64,000 nt of DNA from an uncultured cyanobacterium (GCA_963793425.1 CAWCAG010000009.1:800001-864000), one strand, 5' to 3'; shown: positions 14,339 to 21,497, counted from the stretch's first letter. The notes: a model not told the origin generated them from the sequence alone. Numbers and translations: made by a program.

Positions 14339-15151
14339 ATGAAACTTGGTATTGATATAGGACATAATTGCCCTCCAGATACAGGTGCAGAGAAAATCAA
14401 AAAAGAAGATCATTTGACCAAAGATGTGGGAACTCGTTTGATGCAGAAATTGATTGCTGCTGGTCACGAAGTAGTTGATTGCACACCTAATCCGGCAGAA
14501 ATAAAAGACAGAAACAAATCTCCACGAGAGCTAGTGAATTTATCTCTGCGAAAACGAGCAGAAAAAGCTAACTACAACAAAGTTGATATCTTTGTTTCTA
14601 TACACTTTAATGCTTATACTAACGCTTCTAGCAAGCCTACAAATAAGCCAATGGGAACAGAGATATATGCAATCAGTAATGCTGCTAGAGGCATTGCTCA
14701 AAAAGTCCTGGATGAAATCCTTAAGCTAGGGTTTAAAGACCGAAAGGTTAAAAATAAAGGCTTTGCAGTTCTCACAAGGACTTCAATGCCTGCTATTTTA
14801 GTTGAGTGTTGTTTTCTTGATTCATATCCGGATATGAATCTTTTCGATGCTGAAAAAATGGCTGAGGCGATTAAGATTGGTTTAGTTGGAGAAGCTCCTG
14901 ATAGCAATACTTCTCCTCTACCAGGTAAGTTAAAAGTTTTTCAATCAGCTATTCTCAAACCTTCCACAGAACAGTCTTCAGAGCTACCTCCAGACTCATT
15001 AATAAGTATTACTTCAGGAGAATATTTGGTTTTAGATTACCGTTTAGAAGAACGGCACTACTGGGTAAAATGGCCTGATAATAGCAAGGGAAATCGTTAT
15101 GAGCATTTTATTTTTGAAGCAGATGCTGAAATTATCCCGACTGAGAATTGA
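14339..15151 (+). CDS. N-acetylmuramoyl-L-alanine amidase (Amidase_3), no signal peptide
   Basis: DIGH, E, SIHFN and LVECC Zn/catalytic motifs; the protein starts directly with the catalytic domain. Confidence 0.9.
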   Translation: MKLGIDIGHNCPPDTGAEKIKKEDHLTKDVGTRLMQKLIAAGHEVVDCTPNPAEIKDRNKSPRELVNLSLRKRAEKANYNKVDIFVSIHFNAYTNASSKPTNKPMGTEIYAISNAARGIAQKVLDEILKLGFKDRKVKNKGFAVLTRTSMPAILVECCFLDSYPDMNLFDAEKMAEAIKIGLVGEAPDSNTSPLPGKLKVFQSAILKPSTEQSSELPPDSLISITSGEYLVLDYRLEERHYWVKWPDNSKGNRYEHFIFEADAEIIPTEN

Positions 15152-15164
15152 TCAATCCTAAGTA

Positions 15165-17462
15165 ATGCAATACAAACCCCAGTTTAATCCTTGTTACTCT
15201 ATTGAAACTATAGAACCAAATCAGGTCTTCTTCTTATCTGAAAGAGAAAAAGCTTGGTTGTGTAATCGCCTATCTTATGATTTAGCTAATTTAATCGATG
15301 GCGATCGCACTAATGACGAAATTATTGATACCCTACAACAGTTACTACTACAAGACCCAAAAACTTTACAGCAAGCCAGTACTTTCTTCCAAGAAGTTCT
15401 TAATGTGAGTCTGCAAGCTCAATCTGCCTTATTGCAAATGCAACAGCAAGGCTATCTTGTTGAAAAAGATAACTCTATTCCATCTCACTTAAGCATCTTC
15501 TGCCATCATCTCAATATTGCTCCTAACCTAGCCCAGCAACGCTTGCAAACGATTAAAGTTGCTGTGAAAACTTGCGGTTCAGTTGCGACTGAGGACTTTG
15601 TTGCTACCCTTGAGTCTTTACAAATTCAAGTAGCAGAAGAAGGTGATTTAACAGTAGTCTTAACCGATAACTATCTCAATCCTCAGCTAGATAAATTTAA
15701 CCAACAATCCCTCGAATCTAAATCTCCCTGGTTGCTGGTTAAACCAGTAGGGACAATAGTTTGGCTCGGCCCCTTATTTCACCCCAACAAAACTGGCTGT
15801 TGGCAATGCTTAGCCAAGCGTCTGCGAGATAATCGACCGATTGAAGGGTTTATAGAAAGACAAAAAGAAACTTCTTCTCCTTTAACGACTCCTTTAGGCT
15901 TCTTACCATCTACAGTGCAAACTGCATTGGGAATGGCTGCTACAGAAGTGTTCAAATGGATTATTCAAGGAGAAAATCAACAATTAGAAAATAACTTACT
16001 TACTTACGATAATATTACCCTGCAAACCCAACATCATTCTTGGGTTAAGCGTCCTCAATGTTCTAGCTGTGGAGAACAAAAAAATAGCTTACTCAAACCT
16101 ATTGTTTTACAACATCGTCAGAAAAACTTCACTGCTGACGGAGGACATCGCATCTGTTCACCCCAAGAAACTCTTAGGAAATACCAACATCATATTAGCC
16201 CCATTACTGGCATTGTACGGGAACTAAACAAGATTCCTGTCAACAGCTTAACTCACAACTACATCGCTAAACATCATTTCTTAAGTACTTTCGATAATGT
16301 AGCTAGTTTGCAGCAAAACTTGGGGGGTAGAAGTGCAGGGAAAGGTAGGACTAACTCTCAAGCAATGGCTAGCGGTTTTTGTGAAGCAATTGAACGCTAT
16401 TCTGGGGTATTTCAAGGGGATGAAGTTAGGCAAAAAGGTAGTTATCTGCAAATGGGAGACAAAGCTATACATCCCAACGCTTGTATGAACTTTAGTCAAC
16501 GGCAATATCACCAGAGAAAACAATGGAATCTTGAATGTCAAGGCTGGTTTCAAAAAGTACCTGAACCCTTTGAGGAAGATAGAGTTATTGATTGGACTCC
16601 GGTTTGGTCTTTAACTCACCAGGAATTTAAGTATTTGCCCACAGCGTACTGTTATTATGGCTATCAAACAGACTATCAAACAGACTGTTGGGCTGATTCT
16701 AATGGTTGTGCCACGGGAAATACCATTGAAGAAGCGATTCTGCAAGGATTTATGGAATTAGTGGAGCGGGATGCTGTTGCTTTGTGGTGGTATAACTGTC
16801 TGCAAAAACCCCAAGTAGATTTAGACAGTTTTGATGAGCCTTACTTTCAAAGTCTGAAGCAATATTATCAAACAATTAACCGAGAAATTTGGGTTTTAGA
16901 TATTACCAGTGATTTGCACATTCCTGTCTTTGCTGCGATTAGTCGGAAAAAGGATAGCAAGGTAGAAAATATTGTCTTGGGCTATGGCGCTCATTTTGAT
17001 GCCAAGATTGCCATTAGTCGGGCTTTGACTGAAGTTAACCAAATTTTACCTAACGTCTTATTTACCAAAGCAGATGGTAGTACGAATTATCCCCCATCGG
17101 CGGATACCTTGGCTGTGGACTGGTGGCAAACTGCCACTGTAGCCGATCAATCTTATTTAGTCCCAGATGAGCGAATTGCGGTCAAAGTTAGCAATGATTA
17201 TCCTCAAATGGCCAGTGACGATTTACTTGAAGATGTCAAGCTTTGTCAGAAAATGGTTGAGAAAAACGGTATGGAAATGCTGGTTTTAGACCAAACTCGT
17301 GCTGATATTGGTTTAAGAGTTGCTAAGGTAGTTGTTCCGGGAATGCGCCATATGTGGCAAAGGTTAGCACCCGGAAGGCTGTATGAGGTTCCGGTGAAAA
17401 TGGGTTGGTTGCTAAAACCATTAGCCCAAGAGCAACTCAATTCTTTTCCGATGTGGATGTAA
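15165..17462 (+). CDS. patD: TruD/PatD-like YcaO cyclodehydratase (RRE + E1-like + YcaO)
   Basis: GCWQCL and PQCSSC, ADGGHR, SAGKG, CEAIERYS, DSNGCATGNTIEEAILQGFMELVERD; C-terminus PMWM. Confidence 0.9.
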   Translation: MQYKPQFNPCYSIETIEPNQVFFLSEREKAWLCNRLSYDLANLIDGDRTNDEIIDTLQQLLLQDPKTLQQASTFFQEVLNVSLQAQSALLQMQQQGYLVEKDNSIPSHLSIFCHHLNIAPNLAQQRLQTIKVAVKTCGSVATEDFVATLESLQIQVAEEGDLTVVLTDNYLNPQLDKFNQQSLESKSPWLLVKPVGTIVWLGPLFHPNKTGCWQCLAKRLRDNRPIEGFIERQKETSSPLTTPLGFLPSTVQTALGMAATEVFKWIIQGENQQLENNLLTYDNITLQTQHHSWVKRPQCSSCGEQKNSLLKPIVLQHRQKNFTADGGHRICSPQETLRKYQHHISPITGIVRELNKIPVNSLTHNYIAKHHFLSTFDNVASLQQNLGGRSAGKGRTNSQAMASGFCEAIERYSGVFQGDEVRQKGSYLQMGDKAIHPNACMNFSQRQYHQRKQWNLECQGWFQKVPEPFEEDRVIDWTPVWSLTHQEFKYLPTAYCYYGYQTDYQTDCWADSNGCATGNTIEEAILQGFMELVERDAVALWWYNCLQKPQVDLDSFDEPYFQSLKQYYQTINREIWVLDITSDLHIPVFAAISRKKDSKVENIVLGYGAHFDAKIAISRALTEVNQILPNVLFTKADGSTNYPPSADTLAVDWWQTATVADQSYLVPDERIAVKVSNDYPQMASDDLLEDVKLCQKMVEKNGMEMLVLDQTRADIGLRVAKVVVPGMRHMWQRLAPGRLYEVPVKMGWLLKPLAQEQLNSFPMWM

Positions 17463-17492
17463 ACATCTCCTTTCTCACGAATGTTATTTTCC

Positions 17493-17548
17493 ATGAGTTT
17501 TTATATGAGTTTTATAGGTTGTTACTTATCAAACCGTGAATAACAATA
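17493..17548 (+). promoter_or_regulatory. Second copy of the direct-repeat + AATAACAATA element, upstream of patA
   Basis: atgagtttttat-atgagttttat; aataacaata at the same +46 offset. Confidence 0.65.
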
Positions 17549-17663
17549 CTGACAAGATAAGCAGGATGTCTATTAAATGAAAAGCCTAGTTTTCTCTCAA
17601 CTCCTTGAATAAGTCAATTCTGCACAAACAGAAATTTAATCAGTTATCAGGAGAAGTAAGCAG

Positions 17664-20746: not shown

Positions 20747-20783
20747 TTAGGGATCTGAATCAATTTCCTTCAATTCTGATGTG

Positions 20784-20818
20784 GATCGCTGGTTTCTTTA
20801 TATTATTGCCCAGCGATC
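20784..20818. repeat. Hairpin GATCGCTGG-N17-CCAGCGATC (copy 2)
   Basis: Same stem and loop length as copy 1, ending ~32 nt before the patB-like gene. Confidence 0.75.
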
Positions 20819-20850
20819 GCACTTAACTTTAGCTTAGAGAGAAATAATTT

Positions 20851-21087
20851 ATGAAAATGCCAAAACAAGCTCAACCAGTCAAAAGGCCGCAACTCATTGA
20901 ACCTTACAAAACAGTAGATGTTATTCAAGGAGAGGAGGAAAGTTTGTTGAATGTTCGCTTCGATTTGTTACATGGAGCTAACTATAACGATCCAGCGAGG
21001 TTAAGAGTTGCAGTTGACTCTTGCGGCTGTCATATATTTTCTGGAACTTCAATGTCTCAATGTCTAGCAGTTTGCGGCTTAGTATAG
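20851..21087 (+). CDS. patB: PatB/AcyB/McaB-like protein with Cys-rich C-terminal extension
   Basis: PVKRP...VDV...DLLHGANYNDP signature; tail AVDS-CGCHIFSGTSMSQCLAVCGLV. Confidence 0.8.
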   Translation: MKMPKQAQPVKRPQLIEPYKTVDVIQGEEESLLNVRFDLLHGANYNDPARLRVAVDSCGCHIFSGTSMSQCLAVCGLV

Positions 21088-21140
21088 AGCCAAAAACAAC
21101 AAAAAGCTTAATCTTTTTGGGTATAAAGAAGGAGAAATAA

Positions 21141-21497
21141 ATGTCGTTGCAGTGTATACAGCAGACTATTAGGCAAGAAATAAAAACTAGAGAAGTTCAA
21201 AGAGAAAGTATAACAGAACGCATATTTAAGCTTTATCTACAAGGACTAAAAAACGGGAAAAACAAAGAAGATAAACAATATGAAACTTTGTTTAACAAAA
21301 TAGATAGTACAGCTCATTGGAAGCAACGTCTTGATAGTTCTCATAGTAAAGAAATGTGGCTTAAGAAACTTGAGAGGATAGCAGAAAAACTTGAATTTCA
21401 AATAACTAAAAAAGAGAGTAAAGCACTTGAGAAAGTAGTCTGCCAGCTTAATCACAATTGGGGTGAGCATTGGGAAAGAGGACGGATCTGGGCATAA
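21141..21497 (+). CDS. patC: PatC/TenC/TruC-like protein (extended)
   Basis: C-terminal RGRIWA motif; aaggag RBS; follows patB. Confidence 0.6.
   Translation: MSLQCIQQTIRQEIKTREVQRESITERIFKLYLQGLKNGKNKEDKQYETLFNKIDSTAHWKQRLDSSHSKEMWLKKLERIAEKLEFQITKKESKALEKVVCQLNHNWGEHWERGRIWA

Follow-up and report, generated by a model that had tools for sequence, protein, structure and literature searches.

A PatG-less cyanobactin-type cassette likely to release linear peptides, nested in a separate PatD-amidohydrolase module

Cyanobactins are defined by, and exploited for, macrocyclisation by PatG. Here we describe cyanobactin-type genes lacking this enzyme in a stretch of DNA of 64,000 nucleotides (nt) from an uncultured cyanobacterium (GCA_963793425.1, CAWCAG010000009.1:800001-864000), hereafter the window, whose coordinates are used unless another locus is named. 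On the sequence evidence laid out below, the locus is likely to hold a minimal cassette built around a PatA-type leader protease, which would release linear, probably membrane-active peptides and which appears nested by insertion in an unrelated module of a PatD-type heterocyclase and an amidohydrolase. We also think it probable that positions 17664-21497 form a self-contained unit of PatA, precursors (E), PatB and a PatC-like gene, belonging to a lineage that never had PatG or lost it long ago.

A first-pass annotation of the same DNA had listed an amidase, a YcaO protein, a PatA-type protease, three small precursor-like open reading frames (ORFs) and patB-like and patC-like genes on the plus strand between 14339 and 21497. 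All of them were found where it placed them:
14339..15151, plus strand: N-acetylmuramoyl-L-alanine amidase (Amidase_3; PF01520, 99.3 bits), outside both conserved modules
15165..17462, plus strand: PatD-type heterocyclase with winged helix-turn-helix, E1-like and YcaO parts (PF02624, 350.6 bits; TIGR03604, 272.6 bits; TIGR03882, 180.8 bits)
17664..19868, plus strand: PatA-type leader protease, an S8 protease with a C-terminal domain of unknown function (DUF) (TIGR03895, 781.7 bits, cut-off 421; PatG_D, PatG_C)
19898..20056, plus strand: precursor E1, 52 amino acids; leader, GVEAS, core of 18 residues up to the stop
20244..20405, plus strand: precursor E2, 53 amino acids; leader, GVEAS, hydrophobic core of 18 residues
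20567..20746, plus strand: precursor E3, 59 amino acids; leader, AVEAS, Gly-rich core of 30 residues
20851..21087, plus strand: PatB with a leader-like N-terminus and a C-terminal tail of four Cys (TIGR04220, 79.7 bits, cut-off 55)
21141..21497, plus strand: PatC-like gene, 118 amino acids, ending in RGRIWA; named from its position after PatB and its terminal motif

From the amidase to the PatC-like gene the intergenic gaps measure 13, 201, 29, 187, 161, 104 and 53 nt. Scans for promoter-like sites (14 against 20.8 expected) and terminator-like sites (3 against 7.0 expected) were uninformative, and a homologue stored in the ESM Atlas led to unnamed clusters only.

Among solved structures, the protease is closest to PagA (1.5e-110) and to the N-terminal protease of PatA (3e-100), with the PatG macrocyclase following only at 2.8e-56. 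It was aligned with two PatA and two PatG sequences from canonical clusters; both PatG have about 45-50 extra residues between the catalytic Asp and His, and the window protease has no such insert. Its own Asp-His spacing is 34, and that of 15 other PatA proteins is 32-35. Judged by these features, the protease is PatA-type and not PatG-type. Inspection reveals no evident signal peptide on it.

No PatG macrocyclase is present in the window's own genome (5.28 Mb in 9 contigs, 98.6% complete): a single PatA/PatG match, out of four weak ones, exceeds the cut-off, and it is the PatA-type protease of the window. The same genome gives no match to TIGR03678 (PatE-type leaders), to PF04072 (LCM methyltransferase) or to TIGR04445 (PatF), the last model being silent in control genomes too. 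It encodes one YcaO protein, and the leader motif P.Q..P[VI].R occurs only in E1-E3 and PatB. The absence of PatG and of a PatE-type precursor, first noticed locally, is thus borne out genome-wide, and the canonical patE/patG pair elsewhere in the genome that had been named as a possible refutation was not found.

All three precursors carry LP.Q.AP[VI].R near the N-terminus, followed by GVEAS in E1 and E2 and by AVEAS in E3; in each of them the core is closed by the stop codon, and a follower peptide is absent. AAGGAG lies 7-12 nt 5' of the start codons of E2 and E3. Across 69 nt of leader DNA these two genes are 90% identical, whereas the stretches encoding their cores are unrelated. The scores of existing precursor models remain under their cut-offs (TIGR04446, 19.5-20.3 bits with E1 at 20.3, cut-off 35; PF19158, 17-21 bits, cut-off 25). 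PatA-like enzymes cut after G(L/V)E(A/P)S, according to the available text of PMC10885120, and by this published specificity E1-E3 would be cut after VEAS. Canonical precursors are built differently: those of locus L085 carry a LAELSEEAL-type stretch for heterocyclase recognition, and SYDGEDAE- or FAGDGAE-type followers close the precursors of L085 and L086. Because the window leaders lack a LAELSEEAL-type stretch, modification of E1-E3 by the YcaO protein is unsupported.

In the mechanism we propose, cytoplasmic PatA would recognise the leader (LP.Q.AP[VI].R, then G/A-V-E-A-S), cut after Ser and set free linear peptides of 18, 18 and 30 residues. Linear products are expected because each core ends at a stop codon, with neither a follower peptide nor a macrocyclase at hand; as the same architecture recurs widely, linear PatA-released peptides would also be the most economical product. 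The suggestion of such a product, already made in the first-pass annotation, gains support from the lack of a macrocyclase in the genome, from the missing follower and from the finding of this architecture in 11 of 14 related loci. The peptides are probably membrane-active, to judge from their composition and from the helical amphipathicity of their family, and could be antimicrobial, allelopathic or lytic. We take their cores to be reminiscent of amphibian peptides of the aurein/citropin type.

The PatB protein copies the leader motif of the precursors at its N-terminus (M.[LM]P.Q..P[VI].R, against LPKL..PVKR in canonical PatB), and some component of the cluster may read this common motif. 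Its four-Cys tail is kept in PatG-less loci (PatB genes of L005-L018) and missing from canonical PatB (L012:11947-12147 and L086:14471-14670). The tail was considered as a heterocyclase substrate and rejected, because it is conserved in cassettes where no heterocyclase exists. As for the PatC-like gene, its label stands in part. The 118-residue ORF has no match to the PatC model TIGR04447, to which canonical PatC proteins score 57-69 bits. It shares with canonical PatC, which ends in FRRGRIWA/S, both the position after PatB and the RGRIWA terminus, and the gene after PatB ends in GRIWA/S or a near variant in all nine related cyanobacterial cassettes.

Scanning species-representative genomes with the window PatA yielded 14 related loci. 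In 11 of them precursors with this type of leader come after PatA, again without a follower peptide, and the fetched locus DNA contains no second PatA/PatG-like match and no PatD. Nine cassettes are cyanobacterial (Nostoc, Calothrix, Nostochopsis, Xenococcus, Okeania, Oscillatoriales and others), with PatA 58-61% identical to that of the window. Their gene order is the same in every case: PatA, an E1-type ORF, PatB with the four-Cys tail, the gene ending in GRIWA/S, and one to four further precursors. The short E1-type precursor directly 3' of PatA is thus present in nine of nine, and the window conforms. The recurrence and synteny across cyanobacteria to which the first-pass annotation had looked for a check are therefore seen, the PatA-precursor layout being common to the nine loci. 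Pirellulales and deltaproteobacterial loci from metagenome-assembled genomes have PatA followed by one and by four such precursors, respectively, with cores visibly related to the cyanobacterial ones. A different type is seen in the remaining three loci (Nostoc, PatA 51% identical), where PatD and PatA are accompanied by a second DUF protein.

A precursor profile was made from 24 aligned sequences, in which P, Q, P, R and the Ser of the cleavage site are invariant. Of 1655 candidates it retrieved 220 proteins at E<=1e-3, and the family reaches Planctomycetota and Myxococcota. The 120 precursor proteins listed have the leader and the cleavage site in common, and wherever a source names one of them, the label is hypothetical or uncharacterised. 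The 119 cores that could be parsed are 10-50 residues long (median 22) and rich in L, G, A, I and V, and no C-terminal motif is common to them. Cys is present in only one (the window precursors are Cys-free), Ser or Thr in 112, and the net charge lies between -1 and +1 in 107; in 89 the helical hydrophobic moment falls within the top 5% of the core's own shuffles.

In a tree of 19 rows of our choosing, a branch with 99/99 support sets 13 PatG-less PatA proteins (11 with cores of the precursor family, 2 with Cys-rich cores) apart from four canonical PatA and two PatG, which argues for a separate lineage and against scattered decay. The window PatA sits on a long branch within a set of eight rows (98/99). 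The earlier proposal that cyanobactin machinery had been repurposed, in the sense of a recent derivative, is not favoured by this small tree, where the PatG-less proteases form a lineage of their own reaching other phyla.

By gene content and order among relatives, the heterocyclase and the truncated amidohydrolase on either side of the cassette belong to a different conserved module, into which the PatA cassette is inserted. Of 401 genomes sampled from the phylum, 41 encode a homologue of the window PatD at E<=1e-80, identity reaching 81%. Around the 12 nearest (58-81% identical) there is no match to PatA, E1-E3, PatB, the 118-residue ORF or the amidase, and 11 of these 12 loci have Amidohydro_2 downstream of PatD. 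It is usually followed by a gene of about 340-370 residues without a Pfam match and then by a giant kinase-AAA_16-GAF-AAA_35 protein. The space between PatD and Amidohydro_2, which the PatA cassette fills in the window, measures 10-90 nt in relatives or holds other insertions (a PIN toxin-antitoxin pair, a Uma2 gene). Two remnants of the module follow the cassette:
21548..22261, plus strand: Amidohydro_2 of the PatD module, truncated; residues 1-219 of about 361, with a break at 22201|22202
22453..23895, plus strand: GAF-AAA_35 fragment, the C-terminal part of a giant STAND kinase, which ends the PatD module; homologous to the end of a 1853-residue protein of the same-genus genome G001 and to L077:16143-19301

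The rest of Amidohydro_2 and the gene of about 340-370 residues are nowhere in the window's genome assembly. Across the order, the PatD module is conserved as a unit (L072-L083, 12 loci). An all-against-all comparison of ORFs from these 12 loci found no conserved small precursor for the module, only shadow ORFs of the large genes. The amidohydrolase was considered as a PurAH-like follower peptidase and rejected: the solved structures nearest to it are PtmU3 and decarboxylases, and PurAH is not among its 40 matches. One genome with the PatD module, G101, also has a PatG-less PatA with Cys-rich precursors 15 kb away.

Both modules lie on a strain-specific island. Synteny with G001 ends at 10815 (G001:C2:501435) and resumes at 24043 (C2:501534), positions that are about 100 bp apart in G001, and neither G001 nor the same-family genome G002 contains a PatA. 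Elsewhere in G001 a split PatD adjoins a full amidohydrolase, and this PatD homologue of the sister species is probably a pseudogene. These features, and others at the island, are:
10816..24042: strain-specific island of 13.2 kb, interrupting synteny with G001
10987..12342, plus strand: AAA_35 STAND NTPase with an N-terminal helix-turn-helix (HTH)-like domain (PF14516, 489 bits)
23951..24112 and 25310..25591: fragments of Uma2-family endonuclease genes, flanking the right edge of the island
25825..27924: guanylate-cyclase-TIR-AAA_35 fusion, just outside the island
L039:6519-8793 (G001:C8): split PatD homologue, ORFs of 143 and 582 residues beside an intact amidohydrolase

Relatives carry this kind of AAA_35 gene upstream of PatD: the one at 10987-12342 shares 49% identity, over the full length, with its counterpart in L081 and 67% with that in L073. 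The amidase, without a homologue in the 14 PatA loci and the 12 PatD loci (26 compared loci), is on this comparison a local addition; its best solved relative is an endolysin (5e-10), and inspection gives no evident signal peptide.

Metagenome data (Logan contigs of four DNA runs from one study) bear on these junctions; these four are the runs listed for 17664-21497, with no RNA run among them. A single contig of 12.3 kb from run X1 spans the junction of PatD with PatA as well as that of the 118-residue ORF with the amidohydrolase; for this data set at least, possibly the source sample itself, the nesting is therefore real. At 22201|22202 the contigs of all four runs are interrupted, loose-ended to the left and to the right, and the left ones extend the amidohydrolase frame; the truncation would accordingly be either a deletion or a misjoin of this assembly, one that the runs do not show. 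Contigs of three runs have a loose end at 24042.

The same contigs reveal strain variation. Over 15737-20330 (4.6 kb, PatD to PatA), the run X1 contig has 10 changed letters relative to the window; 20330-20549, from the E2 core to upstream of E3, is replaced by 154 other letters, and the contig contains 228 additional letters. A loose end of run X2 continues with a different core after GVEAS. The variable segment spans window positions 20330-20666, the E2-E3 precursor array. With changes concentrated there, it appears that the precursor array varies between co-occurring strains and the enzymes do not.

Several observations weigh against a complete and independent peptide-releasing cassette. 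For the relatives, the absence of PatG covers the fetched loci, and it is genome-wide for the window's genome only. Of seven relatives scanned with Pfam, five carry an LCM-type methyltransferase 3' of the precursors, and in five a STAND NTPase lies upstream of PatA in divergent orientation. Both are missing from the window cassette, which may therefore be an incomplete copy. The P5 residue of E3 is Ala, with Gly or Ser there in 118 of 120 listed relatives, which makes cleavage of E3 less certain. Over their whole length, the window cores do not stand out for helical moment (shuffle p = 0.28, 0.052 and 0.54 for E1, E2 and E3); p ~0.02 is attained in E2 and E3 by the best 11-residue windows alone. 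The amphipathic character claimed for the peptides therefore holds for the precursor family (89 of 119 cores) and is weak for the window's own three. Pfam scans of the island ORFs gave no exporter, immunity gene or C39 peptidase-ABC protein. Finally, PatD lies just upstream on the same strand and contigs bridge the junction, so that co-transcription and modification of the precursors are possible.

This last point leads to a reading in which amidase, YcaO, PatA and precursors cooperate, with azolines formed from Ser/Thr or with MusD-like C-terminal trimming, giving modified linear peptides. We regard such an integrated system as unlikely. PatD is intact, full-length and 201 nt upstream of PatA; the independent 12.3-kb contig spans the PatD|PatA junction; every window core contains Ser or Thr; and the whole set sits on one island. 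The 12 nearest PatD loci, however, are all without PatA, precursor, PatB and amidase (11 of them with Amidohydro_2), six of ten genomes with the PatD module have no PatA/PatG over the cut-off anywhere, and PatD occurs in none of the 11 related PatA cassette loci. Ser/Thr is found in family cores without any heterocyclase, at the frequency given above (112/119), which makes it uninformative in the window, and the recognition stretch of the canonical L085 precursors has no counterpart in the leaders. The best solved relatives of the YcaO protein are MusD (6e-210), LynD (1.4e-201) and TruD (3.6e-200), but the MusD score of 702.6 bits is barely above those of LynD (675) and TruD (670). The amidase is in no relative. 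Of the single system proposed in the first-pass annotation, co-location remains, whereas one co-evolved system finds no support in the PatA-free PatD loci and the PatD-free PatA cassettes.

Gene neighbourhood suggests another role. The membrane-disrupting peptides could be masked by their leaders and freed inside the cell by PatA under the signal of an HTH/STAND NTPase, in suicide or defence. PatG-less cassettes would then be a peptide analogue of protease-activated pore formers and not natural-product factories, a notion we hold improbable. Its window version, in which the amidase, having no evident signal peptide, would serve as endolysin-like partner in a holin-endolysin-like logic, seems to us equally doubtful. 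The relevant genes of the relatives are:
L005:5414-6829, L007:5995-7443, L008:5526-6890, L010:6108-7517 and L017:6059-7537, minus strand: divergent STAND NTPases, NB-ARC in three and AAA_35 in two
L005:13386-14480, L017:14927-16078 and L040:14289-15440: phospholipase genes near cassettes, Tle1-like (L005) and patatin-like (L017)
L009:12923-13162, L010:14164-14394, L018:11339-11590, L011:6595-6777, L041 (three ORFs) and L084:10007-10669: Cys-rich precursors with the same leader

Consistent with lytic effectors, a STAND NTPase (NB-ARC or AAA_35) lies divergently upstream of PatA in the five scanned loci mentioned, and of seven AAA_35 genes over the cut-off in the window's genome three fall within 11311-26923 (16 kb), one of these being a fusion with TIR and cyclase domains. 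Phospholipases (Tle1-like, patatin) stand near the cassettes in L005 and L017; the L017 gene matches a PADLOC phospholipase effector (1.3e-53), and a patatin-like GGG.RG motif occurs in the L040 ORF. The island shows no exporter or immunity gene, PatA and the amidase have no evident signal peptides, and the latter resembles an endolysin. These are all matters of neighbourhood, though. The STAND NTPases divergent from PatA have in common an HTH-like N-terminal domain of about 80 residues despite differing NTPase modules, and may simply be regulators; PADLOC finds only generic domains (subtilase, cyclase/TIR, kinase, patatin); and the amidase is unique to the window locus. Hypervariable multi-copy cores are more like secreted libraries of natural products or bacteriocins than like a fixed suicide effector. 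Canonical cyanobactin clusters are not known to carry exporters either.

Very improbable, in our view, is a decayed canonical cyanobactin cluster that lost PatG and whose small ORFs are non-functional. The island is rearranged (truncated amidohydrolase, GAF-AAA_35 fragment) and partners of the related cassettes are missing, but all six cassette genes are intact, the leaders are kept while the cores diversify, and the PatG-less layout recurs in 11 of 14 loci and three phyla with a PatA lineage of its own. As to the Cys-rich precursors, they occur inside cassettes (L009, L010, L011, L018) or beside a PatG-less PatA (L041, L084). Sharing a leader with the Cys-free type, they suggest that one protease lineage serves two very different types of core.

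We return to the PatG-less cassette releasing linear peptides, which is apparently widespread and undescribed. We found no description of a long-linear-peptide cyanobactin cassette without PatG in the literature, where earlier cyanobactin surveys or their supplements may mention such clusters; none is described in the available text of PMC4663559, PMC12639078, PMC3877893, PMC5259702, PMC6162287 and PMC10885120. If the reading is right, a large unannotated sister lineage of the cyanobactin systems frees long linear peptides by a leader protease alone. The product space of cyanobactins would then be wider, with a natural library of helix-prone peptides and a portable one-enzyme maturation. Genome-mining tools keyed to PatA/PatG probably call such loci 'cyanobactin' and mis-predict their products. 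The nesting in an orphan PatD-amidohydrolase module would moreover offer a natural test of whether a heterocyclase can be recruited to new precursors.

Canonical cyanobactin pathways (pat, tru, acy, pir), as given in the available text of PMC4663559, comprise the A and G proteases, the E precursor, B, C and, optionally, D and F. The window shares with them the PatA-type S8 protease with its C-terminal DUF, the N-terminal leader motif, a G(L/V)E(A/P)S-type site, PatB and the terminal motif of PatC. It differs in that its genome is without PatG, its precursors have no follower or recognition sequence and no LAELSEEAL-type stretch, its PatB ends in four Cys, and TIGR04446 and PF19158 stay under their cut-offs. 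Its cores are long (18-30 residues, 10-50 in the family), hydrophobic and Gly/Ala/Leu-rich, whereas canonical cores are cyclisable cassettes of 6-20 residues ending in Pro/azoline.

Linear cyanobactins are known, namely the aeruginosamides and viridisamide (PMC4663559) and muscoride, for which no PatG-type proteolysis is needed (PMC10885120). The predicted window products resemble them, as far as these sources describe them, in the linear ends produced by cyanobactin machinery. The aeruginosamide, viridisamide and muscoride products have, in the same accounts, 3-5 residues with prenyl, methyl ester and azole groups and need prenyltransferase/methyltransferase proteins and a heterocyclase. In contrast, the window cores are long (18, 18 and 30 residues), the conserved cassette is without a heterocyclase, the genome is without an LCM methyltransferase, and no prenyltransferase turned up with the PatF model, which gave nothing in control genomes either.

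Class II bacteriocins would be similar in the removal of an N-terminal leader by a dedicated protease, leaving a linear hydrophobic or amphipathic peptide, and in their tandem variable paralogues. They have a double-glycine leader, a C39 peptidase-ABC exporter and an immunity gene, whereas the window has a cyanobactin-type leader and protease, near-neutral family cores (107/119 between -1 and +1) and none of the exporter or immunity genes on its island. Also close to the cassette are the modules with Cys-rich precursors (L041, L084 and others), which pair a PatA-type protease with the same kind of leader; the window cores differ from theirs in being Cys-free and helix-prone, and are accompanied by PatB and the PatC-like gene.

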